Origin: Candidatus Hatepunaea meridiana
Lineage (GTDB): Bacteria > Electryoneota > AABM5-125-24 > Hatepunaeales > Hatepunaeaceae
DNA: 64,000 nt
Reading direction: 5' to 3'
NCBI GenBank assembly: GCA_030765125.1
Contig: JAVCDD010000015.1
Location: 2,939 to 66,938 of the forward strand
The position numbers were made by a program, and so were the translations under genes. This document shows positions 45,818 to 63,608 of this stretch, piece by piece (position 1 is the stretch's first letter; the number at the start of each line of letters is the position of its first letter). The notes beneath the pieces were generated by a model. It saw only the letters and a list, made by a program, of their open reading frames with translations, was not told the DNA's origin and did not search any database.

Positions 45818-45833
45818 TAAACTGGACTAACTA

Positions 45834-46499
45834 ATGATACAAACCAAAAACTTACAAAAAATCTACCGTACTGAAGAGGTGGAAACAGTCGCGCTGGACG
45901 AAATCAACCTCGAAATCAAAGAGGGTGAGTTCGTAGCGATTATGGGTCCTTCCGGCTGTGGGAAATCCACGCTGATGAATGTCCTGGGGCTTCTGGATAA
46001 TCCCACTAATGGACAATACTATTTCCTCGATCAAGAGGTCGCGCACTACTCGGAACGGCAACTGGCAAATCTGCGCAAGTCGAACATAGGGTTTGTATTC
46101 CAGAGCTTCAACCTGATCGACGAACTGACCATTTATGAAAACGTCGAATTGCCGCTTCTCTACCAGGGAGTATCATCTTCCGAGCGAAAAACAATGGTTT
46201 CAGAAGTGCTTGAAAAGATGGAGATCGCCCATCGAAAGAAACATTTTCCACAGCAGCTTTCAGGTGGCGAGCAGCAGCGTGCTGCAGTTGCTCGTGCGGT
46301 GGTAGGCAAACCAAAACTCATCCTCGCTGACGAACCCACCGGCAACCTCGACTCCGCTCGTGGTGAGGATGTGATGAAACAACTCGCCATGCTTCACTCG
46401 GAAGGCGCTGCTATTGTGATGGTCACTCACTCTGCAGCGTATGCTGAGTATAGCCAGCGTATTGTGCATCTGTTTGATGGTCATATCGTGACATCTTGA
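45834..46499 (+). CDS. ABC transporter ATP-binding protein (MacB/LolD-type)
   Basis: 221 aa with Walker [10 protein letters not shown], signature LSGGEQQR, Walker B LILADEPT. Confidence 0.85.
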
Positions 46500-46890
46500 C
46501 AGGTAGCGTAGGGCGGGATCTTATCCCGCCGAACTGCTTTTCTTGATAATGAAGATGTCCGGCAATACTTACTATTAATGATCCTGTTGAAATACTTCCC
46601 ATTTTGTCATTCCCGCGAAGGCGGGAATCCAGTTTAAAGAGTTTAAATACTTGAAAACTCTGGATTCCCGCCTTCGCGGGAATGACAAAGTGGGAAGCAA
46701 ATTCTGTAATAATTGACTTTTTCAACAGAATCATTAATCCGACCGTTTAATAGTTGACGTTGCGTTGCTGTCAGGTTACGCTTCGCTTGAAACCTGACGG
46801 GAACGTGTATATTATTAAGCGGTCTGGTTAATAATTTGAGTGATGTTAGACTTACGGCGGGTTAAGAACCCGCCCTACGTTTCAGGATTA
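46500..46890. repeat. composite nested palindromic region inside the efflux operon, containing a MITE-A copy at 46596..46697
   Basis: Outer inverted repeats cgtagggcgggatcttatcccgcc / ggcgggttaagaacccgccctacg; middle inverted repeats ttaatgatcctgttgaaa / tttttcaacagaatcattaa; inner MITE-A TIRs cttcccattttgtcattcccgcgaaggcgggaatccag. ORF 46423..46734 is spurious. Confidence 0.55.
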
Positions 46891-47036
46891 CCTTCAACAA
46901 GCAATTTATCAAGGTAAAACAGAGTTCAGAGTTCGGCATTTAGATTGTTTTTCCTTCTCGAACTAACGAAGTGAATTCTAAATCAAACACACTAAAGTGC
47001 GAACTCTGAACTCTATTTCTAAAGGAATATTAAATT

Positions 47037-49448
47037 ATGAACCTATCCGATGTAAAACTATCCTGGCGAACCCACAAGAAGAGTCCGCTCTTCGCGGTAA
47101 TCAACATACTTGGCTTGGCTGTGGCTATGGCTGCGGTTATCCTGATTGCTATTTACGTTCGTTATGAACTCAGCTATGATGCTCATTGGAAGAATGCCGA
47201 CAGAATTTACCGTGTGAATGGCGTCTGGACTACCGAAACCGGTGAAGAGATCACATCGCCAACCAGCGTGGGGGCTCTGAAAACCGCATTTGACCGAGAT
47301 ATTCCCGGCATTGAAGCAAGCGCGAGAATCGTTGACTTTGGCTGGCTTGAATATATATCCACAGAAAAAGCTTCCGCGCAAGTACTGATTCCAATGGCAG
47401 ATTCAACACTTTTAGATGTTTTTGATATTAAACTTCTTAAAGGTGATCCCAACACCGCATTGAGCGTCCACAATTCGGTTATCATAAACGAATCGTCAGC
47501 AAAGAAATTTTTCGGTGATGAGAACCCGATAGGAAAAAATTTAGAATTCAAAGCAGGTGCTTTCTATACTGTGACAGGCGTTTTCGAGGATATCTCTCAG
47601 CCGACACATCTAAAAAAGTATGCAATGTTTAACGGAATGCCGAGAATCTGGATCAATGACAATTGGGGATTTGAACTCCCTAATACGTATGTTATGCTCC
47701 AGGAAGGCGTAGATCCACATTCATTGCAACCGGCTTTGGATTCACTCGTTAAACCGCATGTTAAAAATCTTTCTTCTCAAGAAGGAAAGGTGTTCCGACT
47801 CGATCTCCAACCCGTTCGCGATATTCATCTCTATTCTACTCTATCAAATAGATTCTCATGCTGCGAAGAAAACACCACTCCAGCGATAGAAAACATCAGG
47901 TTGTTTTCCGGTGTCGGATTGCTCATTTTGATAATAGCTTGTTTAAATTTCATTAACCTTTCCTCTGCACGCAGTGCAGCCCGAGGAAAACAGGTTGGGA
48001 TTGCTAAGGTGGTTGGAGCCACGCGAGGCAGGCTATTCCGGAGCTTTATGCTCGAATCGATAGTTATGACAACCGGTTCAATGGTGATCGCCTTGTTGAT
48101 CTCAGGATTGCTATTGCCACATTTCATAAACATTTCCGGCATAAACCCGGATGTTGTTCAACTATTAGATTTAAGGTCCCTCGGGTTATTAGGATTATTT
48201 ACTGTTACTGTCGGCTTATTGGCGGGCTGTTATCCGGCTGCTTTTTTATCAGGTTTTCGTCCGGCTCAGGTTCTTAAGGGAACTCTTAGCCAGGGCTTAA
48301 AAGGATCTAAGCTGAGAGCTATATTAGTGATTTTCCAGTTTTCTATCTCGATAGCGCTTATAACCGGAATATTGATTGTCCATAATCAGATTAGTTACAT
48401 ATTCAATAAACCGCTCGGTTATAACATAGAAAACATCGTTATATTGGATCTGATGAGATTCCAGGGTGATTGGAGCGAGGAAGCTTTCATCAACGAATTA
48501 AGTTCATTGCCGGGAGTTGTTGATTTGACGACATCGCTCATGGTCCCGTTACTTGCAGGAGTCAATTGTTCAGGACCGGGTGAATGTTTTATACCTGGAT
48601 CCAACGATGAAATTTTAAATCCGCATTTTATGAAAGTAGGAACGAATTTTCCACAAATGTTTCAAATGAACTTGTTATCCGGCGCGTGGCTTGATAAAGA
48701 GATAAATTATGATAAAAATAACATCTCAATAATCATTAACCAGACAATGGCAAAGCGGTTGGGGTTCGATGATGCGGTTGACAAACAAATAAAGTCTCCT
48801 ATAAATGATGGAACTCGAACGTATACAATCATCGGTATAGTTGAGGATTTCCATTTAAAATCTCTACATTCGCGAATTGAACCAACCTTTTTAGTACCTA
48901 ATTGCAAAACCATTTGGAAGATACTGCTCAAGCTCGATCCAAACGACATACCCGGAACATTGACTGCTGTAGAGAGAATTTGGCTGGAATTAGGTCCACC
49001 GGTGGTTTTTAATTATCAATTTCTCGAAGATGTTTTTCGGCAGATTCATTCGGCTGACAAACGGTTTCAGGAAATTTTCATCAACTTAACTCTACTGGCG
49101 ATCTTCATTGCCTGTCTGGGTCTGTTCGCTTTGGCTGCTTACGCCGCAGAACGACGAACGAAGGAGATTGGCATCCGCAAAGCCCTGGGGGCATCAGTAT
49201 CCGGGATAGTAATGCTACTGTCGAAGGAATTCCTTATTCTAATAATGATCTCAAACGTGATAGCAACGCCGATAGCTTACTATTTTATGCAGCGTTGGTT
49301 GGAGAACTTTGCCTATAGGATTAGTATTGGAACAGGGGTTTTCCTGTTCGCAGCCATCCTAAGCGTACTGATAGCTTTACTCACCGTCAGTGCTCATGCT
49401 GTTCGAGCGGCAATGATGAAGCCAGTGGATTCGTTGAGACATGAATAA
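47037..49448 (+). CDS. ABC transporter permease, FtsX/MacB-type with two FtsX domains
   Basis: 803 aa; N-terminal TM + periplasmic MacB_PCD-like domains + FtsX 4-TM bundle, repeated twice. Confidence 0.8.
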   Translation: MNLSDVKLSWRTHKKSPLFAVINILGLAVAMAAVILIAIYVRYELSYDAHWKNADRIYRVNGVWTTETGEEITSPTSVGALKTAFDRDIPGIEASARIVDFGWLEYISTEKASAQVLIPMADSTLLDVFDIKLLKGDPNTALSVHNSVIINESSAKKFFGDENPIGKNLEFKAGAFYTVTGVFEDISQPTHLKKYAMFNGMPRIWINDNWGFELPNTYVMLQEGVDPHSLQPALDSLVKPHVKNLSSQEGKVFRLDLQPVRDIHLYSTLSNRFSCCEENTTPAIENIRLFSGVGLLILIIACLNFINLSSARSAARGKQVGIAKVVGATRGRLFRSFMLESIVMTTGSMVIALLISGLLLPHFINISGINPDVVQLLDLRSLGLLGLFTVTVGLLAGCYPAAFLSGFRPAQVLKGTLSQGLKGSKLRAILVIFQFSISIALITGILIVHNQISYIFNKPLGYNIENIVILDLMRFQGDWSEEAFINELSSLPGVVDLTTSLMVPLLAGVNCSGPGECFIPGSNDEILNPHFMKVGTNFPQMFQMNLLSGAWLDKEINYDKNNISIIINQTMAKRLGFDDAVDKQIKSPINDGTRTYTIIGIVEDFHLKSLHSRIEPTFLVPNCKTIWKILLKLDPNDIPGTLTAVERIWLELGPPVVFNYQFLEDVFRQIHSADKRFQEIFINLTLLAIFIACLGLFALAAYAAERRTKEIGIRKALGASVSGIVMLLSKEFLILIMISNVIATPIAYYFMQRWLENFAYRISIGTGVFLFAAILSVLIALLTVSAHAVRAAMMKPVDSLRHE

Positions 49449-51858
49449 AATGTATTTGACGGATCTCAAACTATCCTGGCGGACTCACAAGAAGAATCCG
49501 CTCTTCACGGCAGTCAACATACTTGGCTTGGCTGTGGCTATGGCTGCGGTTATCCTAATCACCATCTACGTTCGTTATGAACTCAGTTATGATGCACATT
49601 GGAAAAATGCAGACAGGATTTACCGTGTGAATGGCACCTGGATTACTGAAAGCGGTGGAGAGATCACATCGCCAACCAGCGTAGGGGCTCTGCAAACCGC
49701 ATTTGAACAAGACATTCCTGGAATCGAAGCAAGCGCGAGAATCATGGACTGGGGCTGGCTTACATCTATATCCTCAGAAAAAGCTTCAGCGCCGGTGTTG
49801 ATCCCAATGGCGGACTCAACTCTTTTCGATGTCTTTGATCTAAAGCTACTGAAAGGTGATCCCAACACTGCATTAAGCGACCCCTTCTCGGTTGTAATAA
49901 ACGAATCATCGGCAAAGAAGTTCTTCGGCGATGAAAATCCGATTGGAAAATATCTCGACACCGATGCAGATACTTTCTACACAGTAACAGGCGTATTCGA
50001 GGATATTTCCAAACCGACACACCTCAAAAAGTATAAGATGTTTATTGGGTTGCAAAGAAAATGGATCGATGATTTCTGGGGATTAGACGCCCAAAATACT
50101 TACATAGTGCTCCAGGAAGGCGTCGATCCATACGGTTTGCAACCCGCTTTGGATTCACTCGTTAAACCGCATGTTAAAGATATTTCTTCTAAAAAAGGAA
50201 AGGTGTTCCGGCTCGATCTTCAACCCCTTCGCGATATTCATCTCTATTCTACTCTATCAAATAGATTTTCATGCAGCGAAGAAAACACCACTCCAGCGAT
50301 AAAAAACATCAGGTTGTTTTCCGGTGTTGGTTTGCTGATTCTTATAATAGCCTGTCTAAATTTCATTAACCTTTCCTCTGCACGCAGTACAGCTCGAGGG
50401 AAACAGGTTGGGATTGCCAAGGTGGTTGGAGCCACGAGAGGCAGATTATTCCGGAGCTTTATGCTCGAATCGATAGTTATGACAACTATTTCAATGGTGA
50501 TTGCCTTGTTGATCTCAAGATTACTATTGCCGCATTTCATAAACATCTCCGGTATAAACCCGGATGTTGTTCAACTATTAGATTTTAGGTCCCTCGGATT
50601 ATTAGGGTTATTTACTGTTATTGTCGGCTTATTGGCGGGTTGTTATCCTGCCGCTTTTTTGTCGGGTTTTCGTCCGGCTCAGGTTCTTAAAGGCACTCTC
50701 AGCCTGGGTATGAGAGGATCGAAGTTGAGAGCAATATTGGTGATTTTCCAGTTTTCTATTTCGATAGCGCTTATAACCGGAATATTGATTGTCCATAATC
50801 AGATTACGTACATTTTCAACAAACCGTTGGGCTATGACATAGAAAATATTGTTCTAATGGATCTGATGAAATACGATGGTGATTGGAGCGAGGAAGCTTT
50901 CATTAACGAATTGAGTTCGTTGCCGGGAGTTGTCGATTTAACGACAGCGATCCATGTTCCGTTACTTCCGGGAGTCGGTTGCGCAGGATTAGGTAGATGT
51001 TTCATACCTGGCACGAATGATGAAAAGCTTGATCTGCATATGTTGCGGGTGGGAACGAGCTTTCCACAAATGTTTCAAATGAACTTGCTCGCCGGCAGAT
51101 GGTTTGATAAAGAGACAGATTTAAAAAAAGACGTCTCACTAATTATTAACCAGACGATGGCAAAGCAATTGGGGCTCGATGATCCGGTTGGCAAACAAAT
51201 AAAATCTCCCTATATGGATAAAATTCGAATGAGAACAATCATCGGTTTAGTCGAGGACTTTCATTTAAAATCATTACATTCACAAATCGAACCGACTTTT
51301 TTAAGTCTCGATGACGATGCCAACTGGAATATACTGCTCAAGCTCGATCCAAACGACATACCCGGAACATTGACTGCTGTTGAGAGAATTTGGCAGGAAT
51401 TGGCTCCACCGGTAGCTTTTAACTATCAGTTTCTCGAAGATGTTTATCAGAAGATTCACTTGCCTGACAAACGGTTTCAGGAAATTTTCATCAGCCTAAC
51501 TCTACTGGCGATCTTCATTGCCTGTCTGGGTCTGTTCGCTCTGGCAGCTTATGCTGCAGAACGTCGAACCAAGGAGATCGGCATCCGCAAAGCCCTGGGA
51601 GCATCAGTATCCGGGATAGTAATGCTGCTGTCAAAGGAATTCCTTATTCTAATAATGATCTCAAACGTGATAGCAGCGCCGGTAGCCTACTATTTTATGC
51701 AGCGTTGGTTGGAAAACTTTGCCTACAGAATAACCATCGAACCGGGAGTTTTCCTGTTGGCAGCGGTTTTAAGTTTGCTTATTGCTTTAGCAACTGTCAG
51801 TACTCAGGCGGTCCGAGCTGCAATGATGAAGCCAGTGGATTCGCTGCGATACGAGTAG
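49441..51858 (+). CDS. ABC transporter permease, FtsX/MacB-type (tandem paralog)
   Basis: 805 aa; collinear with, and about three-quarters identical to, the preceding permease; 8-nt overlap. Confidence 0.8.
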   Translation: MNKMYLTDLKLSWRTHKKNPLFTAVNILGLAVAMAAVILITIYVRYELSYDAHWKNADRIYRVNGTWITESGGEITSPTSVGALQTAFEQDIPGIEASARIMDWGWLTSISSEKASAPVLIPMADSTLFDVFDLKLLKGDPNTALSDPFSVVINESSAKKFFGDENPIGKYLDTDADTFYTVTGVFEDISKPTHLKKYKMFIGLQRKWIDDFWGLDAQNTYIVLQEGVDPYGLQPALDSLVKPHVKDISSKKGKVFRLDLQPLRDIHLYSTLSNRFSCSEENTTPAIKNIRLFSGVGLLILIIACLNFINLSSARSTARGKQVGIAKVVGATRGRLFRSFMLESIVMTTISMVIALLISRLLLPHFINISGINPDVVQLLDFRSLGLLGLFTVIVGLLAGCYPAAFLSGFRPAQVLKGTLSLGMRGSKLRAILVIFQFSISIALITGILIVHNQITYIFNKPLGYDIENIVLMDLMKYDGDWSEEAFINELSSLPGVVDLTTAIHVPLLPGVGCAGLGRCFIPGTNDEKLDLHMLRVGTSFPQMFQMNLLAGRWFDKETDLKKDVSLIINQTMAKQLGLDDPVGKQIKSPYMDKIRMRTIIGLVEDFHLKSLHSQIEPTFLSLDDDANWNILLKLDPNDIPGTLTAVERIWQELAPPVAFNYQFLEDVYQKIHLPDKRFQEIFISLTLLAIFIACLGLFALAAYAAERRTKEIGIRKALGASVSGIVMLLSKEFLILIMISNVIAAPVAYYFMQRWLENFAYRITIEPGVFLLAAVLSLLIALATVSTQAVRAAMMKPVDSLRYE

Positions 51859-52252
51859 CTCCGCTGAAACAGATATGAATTGAACCCATCTCCTCCTTAC
51901 TTCCGGTAATTTTACAACTATTTTACATTCTGAAGTAGCAAAAATTTCCATTTGCTGATTTGCTTTAATATATTTGGGTAAATCACGATCTGGTTTGTTA
52001 ACCGAATTTGAAGGAAAATCTCATGAGCAGAATTATAAAGAACTTCCGTCTATTGGCAATAATAGTCTGCATGGTTGCCGTTCTGTTGTTGCAGTTGCGC
52101 AGCAGTTACCTCATCGAATTCTGGTAGCAAGCCTTTTATAATAAGTGGAAATACGATTTTCGACATACTGAGCAACTGATCAGCGGTCTTATTCGTGATA
52201 AACTTACTGAAAAAAGAAACAACACTTAAGAGAATATAATCTGGAGGTTTCA

Positions 52253-52666
52253 ATGAAAAAAACAGTGTTTACAGTCCAAATCTGGTGTGCAGCGGCGTTT
52301 ATCGGGTCAATGCTGCTCTTATCATGTGCTTCTGTCAAGCAACAGAGTGATCCCATACCAGAACTGATTGAAGGAGTAAAAATGGTCATTATTACGACTA
52401 TTAACGCCAATCAGTTCTTCAAGGAAGATTACAAACAGGACGCACTGAGTTTTGTTATGCTTGAAAAAATGGATTATCTTATGATAGATCCATACACAAA
52501 GAAGATATTTGCTTTTACCTTGACACTCAAAGATGGGAAACTGGTGACTATTACTGCCACTACCACTGAGGAGTCCCCTGTAGGATCGGGAAAGAAGGTC
52601 ATTTATGATGTCAACTCTCAAAACTGGAGCGGTGATCTGGTCGAATTGTACCGTTCACAAAAGTAG
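52253..52666 (+). CDS. hypothetical lipoprotein
   Basis: 137 aa; lipobox LLLSCAS after a signal peptide. Confidence 0.5.
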   Translation: MKKTVFTVQIWCAAAFIGSMLLLSCASVKQQSDPIPELIEGVKMVIITTINANQFFKEDYKQDALSFVMLEKMDYLMIDPYTKKIFAFTLTLKDGKLVTITATTTEESPVGSGKKVIYDVNSQNWSGDLVELYRSQK

Positions 52667-52726
52667 ATCATACAAACTTGGTTTGACGGTAGTATTTTAC
52701 AGCCTCAGAGTGATTTAGATAGACCC

Positions 52727-53146
52727 TTGAATATAGAGGAGGTCCATGTGGATCGTCCGATCAAGAAGAAAATCTGGACGCCGAGGCGTATCGTTTGGAT
52801 CGCTCTTGCCTGTCTGGGGCTGTTCGCATTAGCAGCATGCGCCGCAGAACTGCGAACGAAGGAGATTGGCATCCGCAAAGCCCTGGGGGCATCAGTATCC
52901 GGAATAGTAATGCTGCTGTCAAAGGAATTCCTTATTCTAATAATGATCTCAAACGTTATAGCAGCGCCGATAGCTTATTATTTTATGCAGCGTTGGTTGG
53001 AGAATTTTGCCTATAGAATAACCATCGAACCGGGAGTCTTCCTGTTGGCAGCGGTTTTGAGTTTGTTAATCGCTTTAGCAACTGTCAGTACTCAGGCGGT
53101 CCGAGCGGCGATGATGAAGCCGGTTGATTCGCTGCGATACGAGTAG
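52727..53146 (+). pseudogene. chimeric deletion remnant: HlyD-adaptor N-terminus fused to C-terminal ~115 aa of an FtsX permease
   Basis: The first ~20 aa (VDRPIKKKIWTPRRIVWIAL) resemble the start of the 44478 adaptor (MDRPIEKKFWTAKRIVGITL). The rest is near-identical to the last 115 aa of the 49441..51858 permease. The ~160-bp 3' flank (53147..53310) duplicates 51859..52022. Confidence 0.55.
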
Positions 53147-53309
53147 CGCTGCTGAAACACAAATGAATTGAACCCATCTCCTCCTTACTTCCAGTAATTT
53201 TACAACTATTTTACATTCTGAAGTAGCAAAAATTTCCATTTGCTGATTTGCTTCTTATATTTGTATAAATCACAATCTGGTTCGTTAACCGAATTTGGAG
53301 AAAATTACC

Positions 53310-54980
53310 ATGTTACAGAAATTAAAAAGTCTGCGTTTACTACTTATCCTGATAATCTTCGCAGTCTTTATCATACTGTTTGGGATTAGCGATGTTCTGA
53401 ACAAATTCTATCAGGAACAAATGCGTCACATTCAGATTTCAGGTACCTTTAGGACGGAAACCTTAGTTCGAAAGTTATTTCTCTATCGAATCAGTGAACC
53501 AATAACCAAAATTGAAAAAACTCTTACTCAGCATGTTAAGACTGATATGAATGATGAGGAATTCATTGATTGGCTGAAAAATTATTCCAATGATGAATCT
53601 CTTATCGGTGCAGGTTTTGTCTGGCGAAGACTAACAGGTAAGATAGAAATCATATCTCTTTCTTTAAAAATAGACACAAAGACCAAGATATCTATAGAGG
53701 AATACATCCGGACTGTCTATAATCCGGAGTTTGTTCCTGCTTATCCTCCCTGGCGAAAGGCTCTGATTGATTCCCTCAAAGCAGAGATTAATCAGAATGT
53801 TGGCTTTACGCTCTTTCATAAAGATAATTTCCCGGATATCAAACCCCGAAGTAAGGCAATTGAGGCAGTTAATACAGTTTATGGTATAATATGGGATAGT
53901 GATTATTATCTCACTGATTACTTTGCCCCGCTGAAGAAGGAAATTGAAGATAATCCCTGGAATTTTGGTCTGATTTTCTTTACCATCTATAATAATACCA
54001 GAATAGAGGGTGATTATTCGGGAATGTTGCTTGTAGATGCTAATAATGATACTTTATTCAGTTGTGGTGGAATTCAACTGGAGCCTTATTTATTTCAGAA
54101 TCAGAAACAAATTGGTCCTTGGAAAACTAAAATAGACTGGTCCCCAGGCTGGGAGATGTATGCACAAGATCATCAGGCGTTGTCTTCAGTAATCGACTCA
54201 GACCTGTTAGCAAAATTCCGGAAGAGATTAAGACTATTGTTCCTTGTTGCTTTAATAATTTTGTTCGCTGTATTGTGGGTACAAATTAAAGCCCGTGAGA
54301 AGCAGCGAAAAATCATAGCTCACATTTCTCACGAGCTTAGAACTCCAGTCTCAAAAGTCAAGCTTTTCGCCGAAACTCTACGGAATGATCGGACAGTTTC
54401 AGAAGAGAAAGAAGATGAATATCTCGATAAAATTCTGCATGCATCTGACCATCTTTCAGTGTTGATAGACAATACGCTTAACCTGGCACGTCTCGATGCA
54501 GGAAAATTCAAGGTCACACTATCCCCCCAGAATTTCGGAGACTGGTTGGCAACATTTTACAAATCTCACTCTGGTTTCTTAACGGATGCCGGCTTTGAGA
54601 GCACACTCAAGGTGGAGCCCGATCTGCAGGATGTTACCTTTGACACTGAAGCAATGGAGCTAGCGTTGCGAAACATATTAGACAATGCTGTGAAGTATTC
54701 CGAACGAAATAAAGAGATTGAAATCATCGCCGAAAGAAAAGATACAAAGAGAGTAGTTTTATCAGTAAAAGATCGCGGGACAGGCATACCTGAAAAGAAG
54801 AGAAAAGCGATTTTCAAGAGGTTTTACCGAATTAAACAGAAGGATCGTGAACCTGTGGGTGGCGTTGGATTAGGCTTAAGCATTGTTAAAGAAATTGTCA
54901 AAGCTCATCGCGGCAAGGTCTGGTGTGAAGGACGAGAGGGGGGCGGAAACAACTTTAAGATTGAACTGCCGGTTGCCTGA
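53310..54980 (+). CDS. sensor histidine kinase
   Basis: H-box ISHELRTPVSKV, N-box LRNILDNAVKYS, G-boxes DRGTGIP and GGVGLGLSIV; two N-terminal TM segments. Track ORF starts at the TTG at 53295. Confidence 0.85.
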   Translation: MLQKLKSLRLLLILIIFAVFIILFGISDVLNKFYQEQMRHIQISGTFRTETLVRKLFLYRISEPITKIEKTLTQHVKTDMNDEEFIDWLKNYSNDESLIGAGFVWRRLTGKIEIISLSLKIDTKTKISIEEYIRTVYNPEFVPAYPPWRKALIDSLKAEINQNVGFTLFHKDNFPDIKPRSKAIEAVNTVYGIIWDSDYYLTDYFAPLKKEIEDNPWNFGLIFFTIYNNTRIEGDYSGMLLVDANNDTLFSCGGIQLEPYLFQNQKQIGPWKTKIDWSPGWEMYAQDHQALSSVIDSDLLAKFRKRLRLLFLVALIILFAVLWVQIKAREKQRKIIAHISHELRTPVSKVKLFAETLRNDRTVSEEKEDEYLDKILHASDHLSVLIDNTLNLARLDAGKFKVTLSPQNFGDWLATFYKSHSGFLTDAGFESTLKVEPDLQDVTFDTEAMELALRNILDNAVKYSERNKEIEIIAERKDTKRVVLSVKDRGTGIPEKKRKAIFKRFYRIKQKDREPVGGVGLGLSIVKEIVKAHRGKVWCEGREGGGNNFKIELPVA

Positions 54981-55675
54981 TGAATGAAACGATACTCATA
55001 GTTGAAGACGATCAGGAGATACGCCAGGGACTCCGGGATAATCTTGAGTTCGAGGGTTATCGAGTCGAGGATGCCTGGAACTTCTCGGATGCAGAGGAGA
55101 AGTGGCGGGCAGCAAAACCTTCGCTCGTTATTTTGGATCTGATGTTACCGGGGCGAAGCGGTTATCAACTGCTTAAAGAGATGAGAGCATCCGGATTGGA
55201 AACGCCGGTGATAATCCTTTCAGCACGAGGTGAGTTGTGGGACAAGGTTAAGGGATTCAGGCTCGGATGTGATGACTATGTGGTTAAACCTTTCAGTATC
55301 ATCGAGCTTCTCGCTCGCATAAAAGCCTTGCTGAAAAGGTCAATCCCACCGGATGAGCCAAAAGAGATAATCCGTTTTGCCAATCTAAAACTGGATATTC
55401 CAAACAGAAGATTGACAACGAGTGATAAGGTAAATGAACTTGCATTAAAGGAGTTTGAGCTGCTTTTTTACTTCCTCAATAATCCGGGCAGGGTGATTCC
55501 CAGAAAAGAGCTGCTTGCTGAAGTGTGGAATTCATCACCGAAAATCGTAACCCGCACGGTAGATGTTTACGTCTCTAATCTTCGTAAAAAGCTCACCGGG
55601 TCCGGTTACGAAATCCAGGCGGTTTACAAGGTTGGATATAGGTTTAGAGTGATGGATGAGGAGATTCAACATTAA
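54980..55675 (+). CDS. OmpR/PhoB-family response regulator
   Basis: 231 aa. Receiver with canonical acid pocket (IVEDDQ), phospho-acceptor LVILDLMLPG, conserved VVKPF Lys, and winged-helix C-terminus TRTVDVYVSNLRKKL. Confidence 0.9.
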   Translation: MNETILIVEDDQEIRQGLRDNLEFEGYRVEDAWNFSDAEEKWRAAKPSLVILDLMLPGRSGYQLLKEMRASGLETPVIILSARGELWDKVKGFRLGCDDYVVKPFSIIELLARIKALLKRSIPPDEPKEIIRFANLKLDIPNRRLTTSDKVNELALKEFELLFYFLNNPGRVIPRKELLAEVWNSSPKIVTRTVDVYVSNLRKKLTGSGYEIQAVYKVGYRFRVMDEEIQH

Positions 55676-55691
55676 TGTATTATTTAATTCT

Positions 55692-56393
55692 TCAGCGAGA
55701 AGGAATATCGATTACAGGTTGTTCCCATTTATATCCTTTCTGATAAACCGTTATAATACATTTCCCGATTGCTTGCCATTTCGAACGGATACGATGGATG
55801 TGCATATCAACCGTCCGTGTGGTGACATCGACCTCCTCCCCCCAGATCTCGTCAAGGATACGGTAACGGCGTACAACCTCACCCTCACTTCGAATTAACA
55901 ACGCGAGGATCATAAATTCGCTCTTGGTTAGATTTATTTCACTCCCCTCTAACACTGCCTGTTGAGTCTGTAAATCCAACGTAAAACCACCAGATTTGAG
56001 CAGCCTTGGAGCATTCTGATCGGAACCGACACGACGCAGTATCGCTTTTGCTCTACCAAACAGTTCATGCAGTGAAAAAGGGATCGCTACGAAATCGTCA
56101 CATCCCTCATTAAAGGCTCTAATCTTTTCTCTCTCCGCATCCTGAGCCGACAGTATAATCACTGGTGTTGTTCGAGCTTCCTGACGAAGTTTCCTCAGAA
56201 TGTGCCATCCATCAACTCCGGGAACCATCAGGTTAAGCACTATCAGATCAATATGATTGTGCAGTGCATATTCCAGTCCGTTTTGTCCATCGCGGAACCG
56301 AATGATCTGAAAACCTTCGCTCTCAAAACCATCTTGAAGCATCCGTCCGATGACAGGATCAAATTCGATTATTAGAATCGAAGTCATAATCAA
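55692..56393 (-). CDS. atypical OmpR-family response regulator (phospho-acceptor Asp replaced by Asn, conserved Lys replaced by Ile)
   Basis: 233 aa. Aligned to the 54980 regulator, LIVLNLMVPG stands against LVILDLMLPG, and VAIPF against VVKPF. The winged helix TRTVDMHIHRIRSKW is intact. Confidence 0.8.
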   Translation of the reverse strand: MIMTSILIIEFDPVIGRMLQDGFESEGFQIIRFRDGQNGLEYALHNHIDLIVLNLMVPGVDGWHILRKLRQEARTTPVIILSAQDAEREKIRAFNEGCDDFVAIPFSLHELFGRAKAILRRVGSDQNAPRLLKSGGFTLDLQTQQAVLEGSEINLTKSEFMILALLIRSEGEVVRRYRILDEIWGEEVDVTTRTVDMHIHRIRSKWQAIGKCIITVYQKGYKWEQPVIDIPSR

Positions 56394-58052
56394 CTAAACC
56401 GTCAACTCGATTCTAAAGATACTCCCGCCATCAGGATTTGGTCTCATATTAAGACGTCCTCTGTTTGCCTTGACTGCACATTTTGCCTGATAGAGTCCAA
56501 GCCCAATTCCTGCTCTGAATCTATGCTCATCATCAGGGATGATATAGAAAGGTTTGAACACTCTTCGTCTGAATCGCTTTTGAATACCGATCCCATTGTC
56601 GATGACTTCGATTGTTATTCTGTCATCTTGATGATAGCCTTTAACAACGACATTTTTTCCCTCATCCTCGGATGAATATTTTACCGCATTGCCTATGAGA
56701 TTATCAAGCGCGGTTCTCATATTTCCAACATTCCACCTCCCGCTCCAACCGGATTCGGGTAGATCCACAGTGTATGTAAATCCCTTCGCTTCAACATTAG
56801 TACGCCATCTTTCAGCAGCTTGTCGAAGCTCAACGCATAGGTCGGCATCTTCCTTCAACGCGGTTTGCGACTGTCTTTTCATCACGGCAAGTGTTGTCCT
56901 CGTAGCTCTCTGCAGATTGTCGGATTCCACCTGAAGTTGTTCCATAATTTCCTCTTCCTGTTGTGGAGTGTCAAAGCGTTTATCTTTTATCGATTCGATC
57001 AATATCCCGATTCGGGAAACCGGCATCTTCATAATATAACCATAATGAGCCATCAGAACCCGCTGATGTTTGAAAGCACGGAAGTAGATAAAGACCAGAG
57101 ACGCCAAAACAATTACAATAATGCCGATGCCTGTTAGGTTGATCAAGAAAAACTTCTTAACGTAGTCTCGGGCTCTTATTACCCGATTGTAAAATTTCCG
57201 TTCTCCGAAAATAGTTATATGTCTGAGTTGAGGCGCCATGGTTATGTGAGTTTCACTACGTATGGATTCAAGATAAGGGTCATCAGGATTTGCCATTAAT
57301 TTATCTCCCCACCAATATATCGTGTCATTTTCAGACACAGATCCGAATCCGAAGTCATGATTTTTCCTGTTTTCCGGAAAAGAATATAAGCGAAAATGCA
57401 GCCAGTTGATTTGAACACTGTCCCATACAGCAGGTAGTCTCTCAATAAACCAGTCTGGATTAAAAACCATTCCCACCGCGGTATCACCGAATGTTATACC
57501 ATCCGACGAGGGAAACAGAAGTAATCCACCAAAAGAATCCGTTGGAGAATACAATTTCAACAACCTTCCATACCCTCCGAATTTCTCAGATATAACTTCT
57601 GAGAGCTTGCCATCGACCCACTTTTCGATATAGGGCATAAGAGAAGTATCCAACTCTTGATCAGTAAAATTTTCAATACCGATTTGACCGATTACACCTG
57701 AGCTGTCAAATAGAAATGTTGAGTAAATCTCAGCTCTTTCAGAGATACTGACTGCAAAGTCATAACTGCTTGGTAAAAAAGTATTTTCGCGAGAGTTCTT
57801 TATTACGAACCTTGCAAGTGGCTGATATAGACCTCGGTACGCGGTGATCAGACCTGAGCGAAAGAACAGCTTCTGACTGGTGTTCGATAGCCTCGCCAAA
57901 CCGGGACCTCCCTCAAGAATAAACAGTTTAATCCTCTCGTATCTATGGATCCCTTTCAACGGAAAACAGACCGTCCAAAGCAGCACAACGACTCCAATTG
58001 CAACTGCAATGATGCGCCAATTTAAGAATCTCCACCTCATTTCATCCTCCAA
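56394..58052 (-). CDS. sensor histidine kinase (non-canonical H-box)
   Basis: 552 aa with TM segments, HATPase_c N/G boxes LDNLIGNAVKYS, DNGIGI, GIGLGLYQAK. The H-region reads LMAHYGYIMKMPVSRI rather than H-E-L-R-T-P. Immediately upstream of the atypical regulator. Confidence 0.75.
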   Translation of the reverse strand: MEDEMRWRFLNWRIIAVAIGVVVLLWTVCFPLKGIHRYERIKLFILEGGPGLARLSNTSQKLFFRSGLITAYRGLYQPLARFVIKNSRENTFLPSSYDFAVSISERAEIYSTFLFDSSGVIGQIGIENFTDQELDTSLMPYIEKWVDGKLSEVISEKFGGYGRLLKLYSPTDSFGGLLLFPSSDGITFGDTAVGMVFNPDWFIERLPAVWDSVQINWLHFRLYSFPENRKNHDFGFGSVSENDTIYWWGDKLMANPDDPYLESIRSETHITMAPQLRHITIFGERKFYNRVIRARDYVKKFFLINLTGIGIIVIVLASLVFIYFRAFKHQRVLMAHYGYIMKMPVSRIGILIESIKDKRFDTPQQEEEIMEQLQVESDNLQRATRTTLAVMKRQSQTALKEDADLCVELRQAAERWRTNVEAKGFTYTVDLPESGWSGRWNVGNMRTALDNLIGNAVKYSSEDEGKNVVVKGYHQDDRITIEVIDNGIGIQKRFRRRVFKPFYIIPDDEHRFRAGIGLGLYQAKCAVKANRGRLNMRPNPDGGSIFRIELTV

Positions 58053-58559
58053 TCTTAAAGATTAATCAACAGGTAAGATAATTTCGCCTGGATATGCAAA
58101 CCAAGCGAATTAATGCTTATCTTTAAGATAAACTCGTCAGAGCGCCGAATTGTCACAAAGTTGTAACATTTCATCTCTGAGCGAGATTCAATACTTATAG
58201 GTTGAACAGGTTGCTTTTAAAGGCTGATTACAAGGTGGGCGCTTCTTTGGATTAGGATTGTATTACCGGTCTTCCTTACTGTTAGTGAAACAAGATTAAG
58301 ATAGGACAAGTTATCGATTAGAGAGTCGAACTGACGGGTGAGTTCAAGATGGCATTCGATGAAGGCACGATTGAAGAGAAGCGGCTGTTTCTACGGGCTT
58401 CATTCCGTTCCAGCTACCAACCGTTCCCACCAGAAGGAATGGACAGATAAAGCGACAACTTTTTTTCAGGACGGGACAATGCGGATTTATATTTTAAAAA
58501 GCGAGTTTTAATATTATTTCTCGAGAAAAGTATAAATATCTCTTGACTTCTTGTGATTA

Positions 58560-58582
58560 TTGTATATATTGAATATATACAA
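58560..58582. promoter_or_regulatory. perfect palindrome TTGTATATA-N5-TATATACAA overlapping the GntR gene 5' end (candidate autoregulatory operator)
   Basis: ttgtatatattgaatatatacaa, 12 bp upstream of the ATG at 58595; TTGACT at 58544. Confidence 0.45.
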
Positions 58583-58594
58583 TATGGACAAATA

Positions 58595-58975
58595 ATGCTG
58601 TTAAACCTTTCAGAACTATCATCGGAACCTTTGCATAGCCAGATTACCCGGCAACTGCGTGCAATGATTCTAGCTGGGCATCTCGAGTCCGGTGACACGC
58701 TTCCATCGATCCGCGCAATGGCTCAAGAGCAGCGCGTCAGCGTGATCACGGTGCAGACCGCCTATGATAACCTGCAGCGGGAGGGATTGATTCATTCAAT
58801 GCGCGTAAAGGGCAGCATCGTATCCGAACTGACCGCCGAACAGAGAAAAACAATTGCTGTGAACCGTTTAGTAGAGGATTTAGCTCCAGTTTTATCAAAC
58901 GCGCAGGCAGAGGGTTTGACGCGTCGGAAAGTTCTTAACACTATCACAAAGATACTGAAGGGAGATGTGGAATGA
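58595..58975 (+). CDS. GntR-family transcriptional regulator (YtrA-like short subfamily)
   Basis: 126 aa from the ATG at 58595 (track begins at an upstream GTG). Winged HTH LPSIRAMAQEQRVSVITVQTAYDNLQREGLI. First gene of an operon with ABC ATPase + permease. Confidence 0.75.
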   Translation: MLLNLSELSSEPLHSQITRQLRAMILAGHLESGDTLPSIRAMAQEQRVSVITVQTAYDNLQREGLIHSMRVKGSIVSELTAEQRKTIAVNRLVEDLAPVLSNAQAEGLTRRKVLNTITKILKGDVE

Positions 58976-59838
58976 GTTATTCTTTCTGTATTGACAATAT
59001 GACAAAATCTTTTGGCGATTTTGTACTGGGTCCGATTGATCTAACGCTTGAGAAAGGAGTATCACTCGGGCTAATTGGAGCCAATGGTGCGGGCAAGACG
59101 ACTCTGCTGAACTGCCTGTCGGGGTTGATTATACCTAACAGTGGAGATATTTCAATTTTGGATAGAAAGTTGAATCTGTTTGATAAAACCTGGAAAAGAC
59201 AAATCGGTTATATCACTGATGAACCCATATTCTATGAAAACTGGACAGGCGCCAAAAACCTACGCTTCCTTTCAAAGTACTTTCCTGAATGGTCGAAGGA
59301 ATTTGAAGATGAGCTAATCAAGCGTTTTAATTGCCCAGTCAACAAGAAAACCCGCGACCTCTCAAAAGGCGAGAGAGTGATGCTCGCAATTATCAGCGTA
59401 CTGGCGCGTAAACCGAAGCTGCTGTTGCTCGATGAGCCAACGGCGGGACTTGATCCCGTGAACAGATCCAGATTGCTGGAATTGTTATGGGATTTGCTAA
59501 AGGAAGGTGAACAGTCAATCTTCTATTCAACACATATCATATCAGATGTCGGCAATATAGCGGAAGAGCTGGTTTTTATCAATGAAGGCAAATTGACTCT
59601 CCGAACACCGAAAGACAGTTTGACAAACAAGTGGCGGAAGATGACATTCATACATCAGGATCCAGCACTGAATTTGTCATCAATTGTCGAATCCAGGATT
59701 GAAGGATTAAAACGATTAATTGTCAGTTCCGATTACAACGTTACGCTATCCGAGTTACGGGAAGCAAAAGCGGAAGAGATTGAGACAACCCGGATAGGGC
59801 TGGATGAAATTGTCGTGCATATTCTGAAGGAGGAGTAA
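58972..59838 (+). CDS. ABC transporter ATP-binding protein
   Basis: 288 aa with Walker A GANGAGKTT, signature LSKGERVM, Walker B LLLLDEPT; 4-nt overlap with the GntR gene. Confidence 0.85.
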   Translation: MSYSFCIDNMTKSFGDFVLGPIDLTLEKGVSLGLIGANGAGKTTLLNCLSGLIIPNSGDISILDRKLNLFDKTWKRQIGYITDEPIFYENWTGAKNLRFLSKYFPEWSKEFEDELIKRFNCPVNKKTRDLSKGERVMLAIISVLARKPKLLLLDEPTAGLDPVNRSRLLELLWDLLKEGEQSIFYSTHIISDVGNIAEELVFINEGKLTLRTPKDSLTNKWRKMTFIHQDPALNLSSIVESRIEGLKRLIVSSDYNVTLSELREAKAEEIETTRIGLDEIVVHILKEE

Positions 59839-59842
59839 ACTA

Positions 59843-60514
59843 ATGTGGCGCTTAATTGTTACTGAACTTAGTTATAAGTGGTCGCGGATTCTCGTGATGT
59901 TTGCTCTTATGTTATTTTTGATAAATTTCTTTAGTCAGATCATAACTTTTTTCGATCCTGATACTAAAAAGAGATTAGGCGCAGCCTTAGGCTTTGTATT
60001 TTTTTCTGAGTGCGCAACATTGCCTATTACGATTATGTTCTTTTCGGCGAAATCCAGAAAAAACAGGTTATCGGTTCATTCAATGCTAACGTTAAATCCC
60101 GTTGAATTAGGATTAGCGCGTATTGTACCATTACTCATAATCCATATAATTTTAACTGCGGTCTGGATGATCTCGACTCAATATCATAATATTGAGGAGC
60201 AGCAAAGAGTATTAACTTTGATAATAGCTATGAATGGACTGTGGATTTCATTGTTTCTGATAGTGAATATGTGGATGGAATATTGTAGAGAAAAGAAGGT
60301 TTTGAAGACTATATTCCTTACCGTACTAATCATTGCAGGTTTGAGTTTTATGCTGGAACTAAAGTTTGAGTACAAAGCAGTGTATTACCTCGTCAAATGG
60401 CTGTTCAAATCTGTGCTTGTTAACAAAAGCTATATAATTCACAGTCTGATTGCAGTTTCAGTCATGGGTTTCTATCTCCGGACATTTGCCAGGAGAAGAT
60501 CTTTTCTCAGTTAG
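59843..60514 (+). CDS. ABC-2-type integral membrane protein (putative permease partner)
   Basis: 223 aa, ~6 TM helices, follows the ABC ATPase gene by 4 nt. Confidence 0.55.
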   Translation: MWRLIVTELSYKWSRILVMFALMLFLINFFSQIITFFDPDTKKRLGAALGFVFFSECATLPITIMFFSAKSRKNRLSVHSMLTLNPVELGLARIVPLLIIHIILTAVWMISTQYHNIEEQQRVLTLIIAMNGLWISLFLIVNMWMEYCREKKVLKTIFLTVLIIAGLSFMLELKFEYKAVYYLVKWLFKSVLVNKSYIIHSLIAVSVMGFYLRTFARRRSFLS

Positions 60515-60545: not shown

Positions 60546-63500
60546 ATGTCGCATCGATTAGTTTCCAAACGGATCCTCAGTGCAATCCTGCTCTGTATGT
60601 CGATCCTTTTGATTTGCAATTCCGCTCAGGCGGTCATAAAAACAGACGTTAAAGATGGTCTGCGATTTGATCCCCCGATCACTACAGACCTCCTGGGCGC
60701 CGAGACGGGTCATTTGAGGTCGGGCAGCAGCTTTGCCCGAATCAATGAATGGGAATGCCTGCTATTCCAGGAAACCAAGGGGATATCCCGTGCTTTTGGC
60801 GCGCCCATTCCCCTTGTAAATGACCGGAAGAATGATAAGGCAGTCTCGGATTCTGGGATATTGTTTGCAAAGACTTGGGCTGAGGAGTTCAATTTTCATG
60901 GCTGCGACTTTACGGTCAGCTCAGTGAAACATACCTGGAAATGGACGATAGTCACTATTAAACCAGAGATTAAAGGCATACCGGTTTACGATGCAAATAT
61001 TGTCTTGAGCGTCAACCATAAAGGTCAACTGGCTAGCCTGAAGGCGCAGGGGTTTGGCTCTGATGTCAACGGCGCTTTCGTATTGACCGGAACCAATGCT
61101 GTTAACATTGCTAAGCGCGAGATCGGAAAAACAGACAGTAGGGCTGATGCAGAGCCTATCTACATGCCGTTTGTTGACAATGACGACAAGATCAAGCTCA
61201 AAGCCGCCTACCGGATCGTTATGACTACTTCAAACCCAGCCCTTCAACCGACTCTGTTTATCGATGCGTCAAACGGTAAAATCTTCGCCGCCGAAAACCG
61301 AGTGTACTTTGATGCAATGCAGGGACAAACTCAGGGGTATCACTTTCCTTTGTACCACTCAGACGATCCAGAGTTGATAGAATTTCCAAACGAATGGCTG
61401 GAAGTCAGAGGGGTTGATGAGCTTTACAGCGGGGATGACGGCGCTTTTGAGATTGAGGTCGATCCCGATGAAGCGCCTTTTGAAATAAATACAACTCTAA
61501 CTGGACGCTGGGTTGAAGCAGTTCGTTATCCGAATGAGAATTCAACAGCCTATTCGTTTGAAACCGAAGAAATTGACGATGTTGAAATAACATGGGATGA
61601 CGACAACTCTTTCCATGATGAAAGAAACCTCTACTGGCATGTTAATTTTATTCATAGTTACTGGACAACATTAGAGGAGGATTTTGACGCGCTTGATTAC
61701 CCGATGATCGCCGGCTGCAATCTTGGCGGCGAGGGTTTTGAAGCGTATGAGGATAATGCATTCGCCTCTGAACTAGGGCTCTTTTTTGGGCGCGGCAACC
61801 AGTTGGATAATTTTGCATTGTACGCCGACGTTGTCTGGCACGAATATTCGCACATGGTTACCGCAGAAGTGTATGATGACTTCGGCGGCATGCTCGCTGG
61901 TGAAGCCGGCGCGATGAATGAGGCATGGTCGGATTACTTTCCCTGCTCGATATCTGATGAACCGTTGATAGGTGAAGGCGGATTGATGAGAGAATACGCC
62001 GACTATATGCGGAACCTCGACAATGATCTGATTTACCCCGATAGTATTACGGGTGAAGTCCATGACGACGGCAGGATTATCGGCGCCGCGATGTGGCATA
62101 CGCGTGAGGTTTTCGGCGCGGATTACAGCGATTCTCTGTTTCATTTCTCCAAATATCTTCGTGCTCGCAGATTTAAATCATACTTCCAGGATGTCCTTCT
62201 AACTGACGATGACGATGGCGATCTCACTAATGGAGCGCCGAATTATCGAGGAATATTCGAGCAGTTCAAACGGCACGGCATAGATCTTGGCGATTACCCG
62301 CACTTCAATTTCCGCAGGCTCGAGATTGCAGATGACAATCATAACGGCGCGGACGGCAATAGCAACGGTCTATGGGAACCGGACGAGACGATCAGAATCG
62401 ATCTGGAATTCTTCCGTAGCGGTTGTATGGAGTTTCCGGCTGAAGAGGATGTGGTGGTGAGTGTAACCTGCGACAATCAGTATGTAGAATTGAATGAACA
62501 ATCTCGCAATCTGGGCGAGGTTCAAGTCGGTGATGTCGTCAACCTTGACCAGCCGTTGCTGTTCACCATCAGCGAAGACGCTGAACTAAGCGATGCTGTC
62601 CTGCACATTACAATATCCAGCGATGACGATACTCTGCCCGGCGTCGATTCTCTCAATATTGTAATCGGATTTCCGAATCTGTTTATAGTTCGTGATGGTG
62701 AGGAAGAGCGTGATTACAGTGAATACTACCGCGAAGGTTTAGATGAGATCGGCGTCTTTTACGCCGAGCACGGCGTGTGTCTGTTTGAACAGACGTTGGC
62801 AGAACAGCTTGGCATGTTTGAAAGCGTCATCTGGTTTACCGGCGACGATCAGGAAGGCGTCCTGGACAGTGACGAACGGGACGCTCTGACGGAATATCTT
62901 AACGACGGCGGCAATCTCATTCTTACCGGACAGACAGCGGGAACCGCCGAAGGGGCGGAGCCGTTCTTCAACGAGATGCTGATGGCGCACAACGTGATCG
63001 ATTCGCTCCGGCAGCGTGAAGTGCAGGGAGTTGAAGGAGACATTATAGGCGACTCACTCTGGTGCCTGCTCATCGGGGGTGGAGGCGCGGCGAATCAGGA
63101 CCGACCCGGCGGAGTGCGGGCGATCATGCCTGCAGCAGAGTGTTTTTACTGGAATAGAATGGAGGAAACTCCCGGAGCGGGTGTTCGATATCAGAACGAC
63201 GAGACTGGCGCTAAAAGCGTTTACTTATCATTTGGACTAGAATCGGTAAACGACGCGAGTCGATCTAATTCAAGGGGTGAAGTTTTACAGAGGATTCTGA
63301 CGAGTTTTGAGTCTGATTGGTCGGCGGCGCCTGAATTAACCATACCACTGGTTTTCCAGATTGGCAACCCCTTTCCCAACCCATTCAACAGCTATGTAAA
63401 ATTACCGGTGAGCATCAGCCGGTCCGGACTGATAACAATAGCGCTGTACGATATTCGCGGCAGAGCAATCTTCACCTACAGCCAACGCCTGAACGCGGGA

Positions 63501-63608
63501 ACCTCGCAAATACCGATCAACGCGCTGAACTGGTCGGCGGGTAAATATATTCTCAAAGTCAACTCCGGAGAGGAAGTCTATTTTACTCCGGTGACTTTAG
63601 TGAGATAA
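60546..63608 (+). CDS. secreted thermolysin-like (M4/M36-type) zinc metalloprotease with T9SS C-terminal sorting domain
   Basis: 1020 aa with signal peptide, HExxH (VVWHEYSHMV), third-ligand motif GAMNEAWSDYF, and CTD IGNPFPNPFNSYVKLPVSISRSGLITIALYDIRGRAIF...VYFTPVTLVR. Confidence 0.75.
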   Translation: MSHRLVSKRILSAILLCMSILLICNSAQAVIKTDVKDGLRFDPPITTDLLGAETGHLRSGSSFARINEWECLLFQETKGISRAFGAPIPLVNDRKNDKAVSDSGILFAKTWAEEFNFHGCDFTVSSVKHTWKWTIVTIKPEIKGIPVYDANIVLSVNHKGQLASLKAQGFGSDVNGAFVLTGTNAVNIAKREIGKTDSRADAEPIYMPFVDNDDKIKLKAAYRIVMTTSNPALQPTLFIDASNGKIFAAENRVYFDAMQGQTQGYHFPLYHSDDPELIEFPNEWLEVRGVDELYSGDDGAFEIEVDPDEAPFEINTTLTGRWVEAVRYPNENSTAYSFETEEIDDVEITWDDDNSFHDERNLYWHVNFIHSYWTTLEEDFDALDYPMIAGCNLGGEGFEAYEDNAFASELGLFFGRGNQLDNFALYADVVWHEYSHMVTAEVYDDFGGMLAGEAGAMNEAWSDYFPCSISDEPLIGEGGLMREYADYMRNLDNDLIYPDSITGEVHDDGRIIGAAMWHTREVFGADYSDSLFHFSKYLRARRFKSYFQDVLLTDDDDGDLTNGAPNYRGIFEQFKRHGIDLGDYPHFNFRRLEIADDNHNGADGNSNGLWEPDETIRIDLEFFRSGCMEFPAEEDVVVSVTCDNQYVELNEQSRNLGEVQVGDVVNLDQPLLFTISEDAELSDAVLHITISSDDDTLPGVDSLNIVIGFPNLFIVRDGEEERDYSEYYREGLDEIGVFYAEHGVCLFEQTLAEQLGMFESVIWFTGDDQEGVLDSDERDALTEYLNDGGNLILTGQTAGTAEGAEPFFNEMLMAHNVIDSLRQREVQGVEGDIIGDSLWCLLIGGGGAANQDRPGGVRAIMPAAECFYWNRMEETPGAGVRYQNDETGAKSVYLSFGLESVNDASRSNSRGEVLQRILTSFESDWSAAPELTIPLVFQIGNPFPNPFNSYVKLPVSISRSGLITIALYDIRGRAIFTYSQRLNAGTSQIPINALNWSAGKYILKVNSGEEVYFTPVTLVR

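Follow-up and report, generated by a model that had tools for sequence, protein, structure and literature searches.

Response regulators of the OmpR family whose receiver lacks the phospho-acceptor aspartate, the aspartate-less receivers (ALRs), make up ≈2% of REC-OmpR proteins, with Asn accounting for 16% of the ALR substitutions (PMC4395418), and HisKA domains without the His occur at ≈0.9% (PMC12632262). The characterised pseudo-receivers are nearly all orphans, with CmrT and FrzS as the two exceptions among the 20 reviewed, and how such receivers are switched on and off “remains a mystery” in the words of the same 2025 review (PMC12632262). On the kinase side, DivL of Caulobacter crescentus has Tyr550 in place of the His, keeps all of the histidine kinase boxes, has neither kinase nor phosphatase activity, and works not by phosphotransfer but through a response regulator docked on the surface of its dimerization and histidine phosphotransfer (DHp) domain; in 2014 the His→Tyr change was taken to be unique to DivL (PMC4211667). 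Here we describe a locus in a 64,000-nucleotide stretch of Candidatus Hatepunaea meridiana (phylum Ca. Electryoneota, Fibrobacteres–Chlorobi–Bacteroidetes (FCB) group; the whole stretch is “the window” below), in which a tight two-gene operon on the minus strand encodes a membrane kinase homologue, HK2, upstream and a DNA-binding regulator, RR2, downstream:

56394–58052, minus strand: HK2 kinase-homologue gene, open reading frame (ORF) of 552 aa, likely ATG at 58040
55692–56393, minus strand: RR2 regulator gene, ORF of 233 aa, likely ATG at 56387, 6 nt past the HK2 stop

Two database proteins, P0001 and P0121, match these ORFs at 100% identity. We believe, at a probability of roughly 0.6, that HK2 and RR2, a pseudo-kinase and a pseudo-receiver, have degenerated together and form an autoregulated pair whose signalling does not involve His–Asp phosphotransfer. 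An earlier note on the stretch, made from its letters, had suggested a phosphorylation-independent regulator or a pseudo-kinase partner, and both halves of that suggestion hold, as RR2 is without the acceptor Asp, one metal-binding Asp and the Lys, and HK2 is without the phospho-His and the phosphatase Thr. Its heading, a histidine kinase paired with such a regulator, understated the case, since the kinase is itself degenerate.

Substituted active sites in RR2 and HK2

RR2 is of the OmpR/PhoB type, with an N-terminal receiver (Pfam Response_reg, E 1.3e-20) and a C-terminal winged helix (Trans_reg_C, E 1.8e-21), arranged as follows:

56031–56381, minus strand: RR2 pseudo-receiver, residues 5–121
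55719–55991, minus strand: RR2 winged-helix DNA-binding domain, residues 135–225
56361–56363, minus strand: Phe11 codon, position of the second acidic, metal-binding Asp
56232–56234, minus strand: Asn54 codon, position of the phospho-acceptor Asp
56148–56150, minus strand: Ser82 codon
56091–56093, minus strand: Phe101 codon, position of the switch Tyr
56082–56084, minus strand: Ile104 codon, position of the conserved Lys

The positions were set by three independent alignments: with RR1, the regulator of a canonical pair next door, with 20 homologues, and with the solved RegX3 and DrrD, which together with RpaA and PrrA are the best solved relatives of RR2. All three place Asn54 on the phospho-Asp (LIVLNLM vs DIVLLDLM), Ile104 on the conserved Lys (VAIPF vs VTKPY) and Phe11 on the second acidic residue (IEFD vs VEDE). 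The earlier note had already named the Asn (LIVLNLMVPG), the Ile (VAIPF) and an intact winged helix, the last borne out by the Trans_reg_C match, which the conserved direct repeat upstream of the operon fits; it had overlooked the changes from Asp to Phe at 11 and from Tyr to Phe at 101. Glu10 and Ser82 are still present. With Asn54, Phe11 and Ile104 where a catalytic receiver has Asp, Asp and Lys, RR2 is predicted to be unable to bind Mg2+ or to accept a phosphoryl group, and with a match to PF00072 and Asn at the acceptor it falls among the ALRs as these have been defined (PMC4395418, PMC12632262). The receiver fold, the residues of the α4–β5–α5 dimer interface and the winged helix are all kept, Asp99, Asp100, Arg114 and Arg121 of the interface being invariant across the clade of RR2 and its canonical homologues.

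In its combination of receiver and winged helix, with the acceptor and other active-site residues replaced, RR2 resembles the ALR regulators RitR, ChxR, HP1043/HsrA and GlnR, and with RitR (Asn53) it shares Asn at the acceptor itself. By analogy with these, the activity of RR2 would be expected to be independent of phosphorylation. Unlike them, RR2 is strictly operon-linked to a kinase homologue, itself degenerate, and the combination Phe11/Asn54/Ile104/Phe101 is a signature of its own clade. No named ALR orthologous to RR2 was found, and no NCBIfam model matches it at the model's cut-off. CmrRST of Clostridioides difficile likewise includes an OmpR-family pseudo-receiver that is not an orphan (PMC12632262, PMC12548384); CmrT, however, accompanies an apparently normal kinase and regulator, whereas the only kinase homologue in the operon of RR2 has no phospho-His.

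The kinase homologue is built as follows:

residues ≈10–33: HK2 first transmembrane helix (TM1)
residues ≈34–299: HK2 periplasmic sensor domain
residues ≈300–326: HK2 second transmembrane helix (TM2)
residues 328–392: HK2 DHp-like helical hairpin
57012–57056, minus strand: HK2 degenerate H-box LMAHYGYIMKMPVSR, from translation and alignments
57036–57038, minus strand: Tyr339 codon, position of the phospho-His
57024–57026, minus strand: Met343 codon, position of the phosphatase Thr
56397–56852, minus strand: HK2 catalytic and ATP-binding (CA) domain, residues 401–552, HATPase_c
56673–56717, minus strand: N box RTALDNLIGNAVKYS (includes DNLIGNAVKYS)
56580–56606, minus strand: G1 box VIDNGIGIQ
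56544–56564, minus strand: F box RVFKPFY
56484–56510, minus strand: G2 box GIGLGLYQA

Alignments of the H-box with HK1 (the kinase of the canonical pair next door), with 16 family members and with the solved CpxA agree with one another: Tyr339 of LMAHYGYIMKMPV falls on the phospho-His, and Met343 replaces the Thr of the HExxT phosphatase motif (Y-I-M-K-M). The H-region that had been called atypical (LMAHYGYIMKM) is thus a His→Tyr change at the acceptor together with loss of the phosphatase Thr, and the place of the phosphorylatable His is held by Tyr339. His336 stands three residues before it, and most family members have His at that position too. HK2 has neither the phosphorylatable His nor the phosphatase motif (E/DxxT/N) of the HisKA type; the N, G1, F and G2 boxes of GHKL-type ATP binding are all present and conserved, and the ATP-lid segment is clade-specific (IIPDDEHRFRA, with His510 and Phe512). 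As far as sequence can tell, classical His–Asp phosphotransfer would be excluded on both sides of the pair. Pfam matches HATPase_c only (E 3.4e-17) and no HisKA in HK2, an absence that we dropped as a sign of degeneracy because the canonical relatives also have no match or a weak one.

In the AlphaFold (AF2) model (mean predicted local distance difference test score, pLDDT, of 80), two membrane helices flank a periplasmic domain composed of a long helix and two α/β modules, and a continuous helix runs from TM2 into the DHp with no HAMP domain, followed by the CA domain. The predicted cytoplasmic core superposes in Foldseek on HK853 (TM-score 0.75) and on DivL (TM-score 0.68 to 4q20). A full-length Foldseek search, dominated by this core, did not identify the fold of the sensor; by topology only, its two α/β modules may be dCache-like. 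No match to a PAS domain was found in HK2.

HK2 has in common with DivL the Tyr at the phospho-His position, the retained N, G1, F and G2 boxes, and the DHp and CA fold. HK2 is not a DivL orthologue, however. The kinases closest to it come from the FCB group or from metagenomes and have an AHLAH H-box, and its His→Tyr change appears to have arisen independently, inside this “AHLAHxxKTPV” kinase family of FCB-group bacteria. In HK2 the sensor is periplasmic and lies between two membrane helices, whereas DivL is alphaproteobacterial with multiple cytoplasmic PAS domains; the partner of HK2 is an Asp-less DNA-binding regulator, whereas DivK, the partner of DivL, is a single-domain protein with an intact Asp that is phosphorylated by other kinases. 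HK2 works like DivL at most, and is not a member of its family.

A conserved clade with canonical relatives

In a survey of the 120 best RR2 homologues, Phe/Asn/Ile is found in only the six closest (55–100% identity), and 114 of the 120 are canonical. An exhaustive search of 1.84 billion representative proteins with the kinase gave only eight matches at E ≤ 1e-30, and among the representative-protein matches of HK2 a Tyr at the phospho-His position occurs only in HK2 orthologues. It was this exhaustive search that revealed the family: a word-indexed protein search with a Tyr-clade profile returned generic kinases only and missed the known orthologues, and a contig scan with the kinase-family alignment, whose pattern was a generic N-box peptide, returned only unrelated kinases. 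A metagenome DNA pattern for ILIIEFDP..G found the Ca. Electryonea contigs again plus one chance match (L092), and nothing else.

The pair is present on L001, L002, L003 and L090 (Ca. Electryonea clarkiae) and on L004, L005, L006 and L007. A full-length kinase is available in four independent lineages, namely the window, L001, L004 and L093, and all four combine a Tyr kinase with a Phe/Asn/Ile regulator, at identities of 40–57% for the kinase and 53–66% for the regulator. The most distant of these kinases, P0242 on L093 (40% identical to HK2), is one of the eight matches of the exhaustive search and has the H-box SHYNYTLKMPL, and the regulator directly downstream of it (53% identity to RR2) carries IIEFDS, LNLM and IPFS. 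Three short contigs (L005–L007) have the same type of regulator preceded by the C-terminus of the kinase, and an HK2 orthologue lies directly upstream of every Phe/Asn/Ile regulator found. This comparison of orthologues, which the earlier note had proposed, shows the same substitutions recurring in independent assemblies; since 114 of 120 homologues are canonical besides, chance and assembly error are not the source of the substitutions.

Could both genes be functionless remnants of a two-component system? Both phosphorylation sites are gone and Pfam sees no HisKA in HK2, as decay would have it. The reading frames of both genes, however, are intact in every lineage, Nei–Gojobori ratios of nonsynonymous to synonymous substitution (dN/dS) are 0.13–0.23 for the regulator and 0.09–0.21 for the kinase, lineages with saturated synonymous sites share the same fixed substitutions, and the upstream repeat is conserved; the lack of a strong HisKA match in the canonical relatives also speaks for a divergent family and not for decay. 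Given the intact frames and a dN/dS of 0.09–0.23 over both genes, HK2 and RR2 are not pseudogenes: the pair forms a conserved clade under purifying selection, and decay is effectively refuted.

Outside the clade, the next HK2 relatives (25–34% identity) have the H-box ALAHLAHxIKTPVARL, with both His and Thr, and sensor motifs in common with HK2 (GDTAVG, DS, DTLYWWGD and FGER). The nearest regulators outside the clade, P0012 and P0016 (loci L089 and L088), have the canonical Asp and Lys and stand beside kinases with AHLAH/EHLSH..KTPVAR H-boxes, in the gene order kinase then regulator. Position by position, residue 339 is Tyr in 4/4 clade members and His in 16/16 nearest relatives, residue 343 is Met in 4/4 and Thr in 15/16, and further clade-specific changes in HK2 are Leu→Tyr at 337 and the two ATP-lid residues given above. 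In RR2, the Asp→Phe change at 11, Asp→Asn at 54 and Lys→Ile at 104 each face the canonical residue in 54/54 close non-clade homologues, and Tyr→Phe at 101 and Gly→Ala at 93 do so in 53/54. The canonical family (L088 and L089; P0243, P0245 and P0250) is therefore like HK2/RR2 in sensor motifs, gene order and type of upstream repeat, but keeps His, Thr, Asp, Asp and Lys, all five of which the clade has replaced. Because the nearest non-clade regulators keep Asp and Lys beside His-bearing kinases, the ancestor was canonical, and HK2/RR2 descend from such a system with the phosphotransfer residues lost in both partners. The comparisons also show joint loss of the two phospho-sites, as a single evolutionary unit.

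Two other kinases came to light in the protein searches. P0246, a member of the canonical family, has Tyr at −3 (LVYLAHNIKTP) and keeps the phospho-His, which implies that His336 is not essential in the family. P0177 has Leu at the expected His position (IGLELKRPV), and may be another, unrelated degenerate kinase.

The upstream direct repeat and the mode of signalling

The only conserved island in a four-lineage alignment of the regions upstream of the kinase gene is a direct repeat:

58147–58168, minus strand: direct repeat TGTTACAACTT TGTGACAATTC, two 11-nt units (22 nt), ≈100 nt before the HK2 start

Its consensus across the four lineages is TG(T/A)TACAACTT TGT(G/T)ACAATTC, at 85–245 nt before the kinase start codon. 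With up to 3 mismatches allowed, the window has no other copy of the repeat (the expectation from shuffled sequence being 0), and among all fetched loci the repeat is found only upstream of HK2 orthologues, with similar repeats of the type GTTACAAC-N3-GTGACAAC preceding the kinase genes of the canonical relatives (GGTTACAACTTCGTGACAAC in L089 and TTAACAACTCCTTGACAAC in L088). OmpR/PhoB regulators usually have operators made of direct repeats with an 11-bp period, which they bind as tandem dimers, an example of such an operator being the WalR consensus TGTWAH-N5-TGTWAH. We infer that 58147–58168 is a candidate operator for RR2, which would make the operon autoregulated; the invariant dimer-interface residues of RR2 accompany the conserved 2 × 11-nt repeat. 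The GntR regulator encoded divergently from HK2 was considered as the binder of the repeat and is not the likely one, as the repeat stays with the operon also in loci where no GntR gene is a neighbour. A 63-aa ORF called at 4780–4971 of L093 (also at 504–695 of L094) overlaps the repeat (4912–4933) and is probably a spurious call over the promoter region.

On our preferred reading, a tandem dimer of RR2 would occupy the repeat in front of its own operon, and HK2 would pass a periplasmic signal to RR2 through direct contact between its DHp and the receiver, either by holding RR2 at the membrane and then releasing it or by shifting its conformation or dimer state. The nucleotide in the CA domain would act as a conformational cofactor and not as a phosphodonor. 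That HK2 and RR2 work together is suggested by the strict operon linkage, and DivL is the precedent for signalling by binding. Within the clade, conservation is 0.76 for the receiver and 0.73 for the DNA-binding domain of RR2; in HK2 it is 0.79–0.94 for the ATP-binding boxes, the highest in the protein, 0.70 for the CA domain and 0.66 for the sensor, and the DHp is better conserved than the sensor. More tentatively, and at slightly worse than even odds, the locus could be a “phosphate-free” two-component system working by protein contact alone, possibly gated by nucleotide binding in the CA domain or by Tyr autophosphorylation, that arose from the joint loss of both phospho-sites; no operon-encoded pair of pseudo-kinase and pseudo-receiver would then have been described before it, and it would be the second independent case of a DivL-type His→Tyr change.

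The ATP-binding boxes also bear on a rival in which phosphorylation continues with other chemistry: HK2 would autophosphorylate on Tyr339 (or on Tyr337 or His336), and the phospho-form would alter the affinity for RR2 or modify a Ser, Thr, Tyr or His of RR2. The N, G1, F and G2 boxes are invariant as well as being the most conserved HK2 segments in the clade, Tyr337, Tyr339 and His336 around the acceptor site and the clade-specific His510 of the ATP lid are invariant too, and substituted receivers could be targets of other kinases according to the ALR review (PMC4395418). DivL, however, binds ATP weakly and is without autokinase activity although it keeps every box (PMC4211667), and RR2 is missing both the Mg2+ ligand and the Lys that receiver-catalysed transfer requires. 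Nor does RR2 have an obvious clade-specific Ser, Thr or Tyr acceptor: the residues peculiar to the clade are Phe, Asn, Ile, Ala, Trp, Met and Gln, to which 6/7 sequences add Ser5 and Ser204. We regard this rival as unlikely.

Several points weigh against signalling by contact without phosphotransfer. The case for HK2–RR2 contact consists of operon linkage and joint conservation in four to seven sequences, and the α1 helix of the receiver, the usual kinase-docking surface, is conserved at 0.73 against 0.76 for the whole receiver. The strong conservation of the ATP-binding boxes fits real catalysis as well as it fits a structural or allosteric role, and a factor other than RR2 could in principle occupy the repeat. 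The source is an uncultured metagenome-assembled genome and the clade as a whole is small and uncultured, and the mechanism is one that we infer.

Each half of the pair is in a known class, and what sets it apart is the strict pairing of degenerate partners, their canonical ancestry and the independent His→Tyr change. No description of an operon-encoded pseudo-kinase plus pseudo-receiver pair was found in the literature searched, which is not proof of absence. The pair supplies a candidate input for a pseudo-receiver, namely a cognate membrane sensor that is itself without phosphotransfer, and its canonical sister systems and candidate DNA target make it suited to comparison. It also poses a testable question, whether a histidine-kinase scaffold can control a response regulator by binding alone.

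The canonical neighbours and the flanking genes

A canonical pair lies next door on the opposite strand, as the earlier note had stated, and both ORFs have the full Pfam domain sets:

53295–54980, plus strand: HK1 canonical kinase, HisKA and HATPase_c
54980–55675, plus strand: RR1 canonical regulator, Response_reg and Trans_reg_C

HK1/RR1 and HK2/RR2 are convergent, with the stop codons of RR1 and RR2 separated by 16 nt (55676–55691), and as a simple scan found no terminator-like hairpin in this gap, the transcripts could overlap. RR1 is 32% identical to RR2, and the sensor domains of HK1 and HK2 have no significant similarity (BLASTP E 0.32), which rules out that the kinases are recent paralogues with a common sensor domain; HK1/RR1 is accordingly not the source of HK2/RR2. 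The adjacency itself is present in the window and L005 and absent in L001, L004 and L093, and so is not conserved.

These neighbours are the natural candidates for a further rival, in which there is no signalling within the degenerate pair: HK2 would heterodimerise with a true kinase in the style of RetS/GacS, and/or RR2 would partner or compete with a canonical regulator in the style of BldM/WhiI or CmrT, with HK1 and RR1 as the partners. The convergent pair, only 16 nt distant both in the window and in L005, a close relative, and the related repeat TTTTACAACTATTTTACATTC upstream of HK1 agree with this, and such modes are documented for other pseudo-receivers (PMC12632262, PMC4125116). Set against it are the conservation of the degenerate pair in L001, L004 and L093, where no canonical pair is adjacent, the different H-box type of HK1 and its dissimilar sensor, the low identity of RR1 to RR2, and the strict operon linkage of HK2 to RR2. 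We consider it somewhat less probable still than phosphorylation with other chemistry.

The direct repeat TTTTACAACTATTTTACATTC is located at 53198–53218, ≈95 nt upstream of HK1, and again at 51910–51930 in a duplicated copy. It resembles the RR2 repeat TGTTACAACTTTGTGACAATTC and may be the RR1 operator, so RR1 and RR2 could overlap in DNA specificity. The duplication is a direct one of ≈325 nt (51700–52025 and 52988–53312; 94% and 84% identity; 1288 nt apart) that takes in the 3′ end of a MacB/FtsX permease gene together with the intergenic region after it and the opening bases of the following gene, and between its copies are a 137-aa ORF (52253–52666) and a truncated FtsX C-terminal fragment (52727–53146). 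The arrangement from 51700 to 53312 resembles a local duplication or insertion immediately before HK1. Directly upstream of HK1/RR1, a MacAB-type efflux cluster (44478–51858) encodes an HlyD-family adaptor, an ABC ATPase and two MacB_PCD/FtsX permeases of ≈800 aa, and is a likely target of the HK1/RR1 system.

In every lineage, large proteins with a type IX secretion sorting tail flank the degenerate pair (L001 3584–5767, L004 7964–13724 and L093 397–4630); the 727-aa protein of L001 has no Pfam match on record, and its tail was read from the near-identical copy in L090. No second copy of the repeat was found beside these genes in the fetched loci, and their presence may be a coincidence in FCB-group genomes or a hint at a regulon. 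In the window, the genes divergent from HK2 (58553–60514) encode the small GntR-family regulator, an ABC ATPase and a 223-aa membrane protein for which no Pfam match was found, and beyond them, at 60546–63608, is a 1020-aa protein with a type IX secretion C-terminal sorting domain and an HEYSH (HExxH-like) motif.

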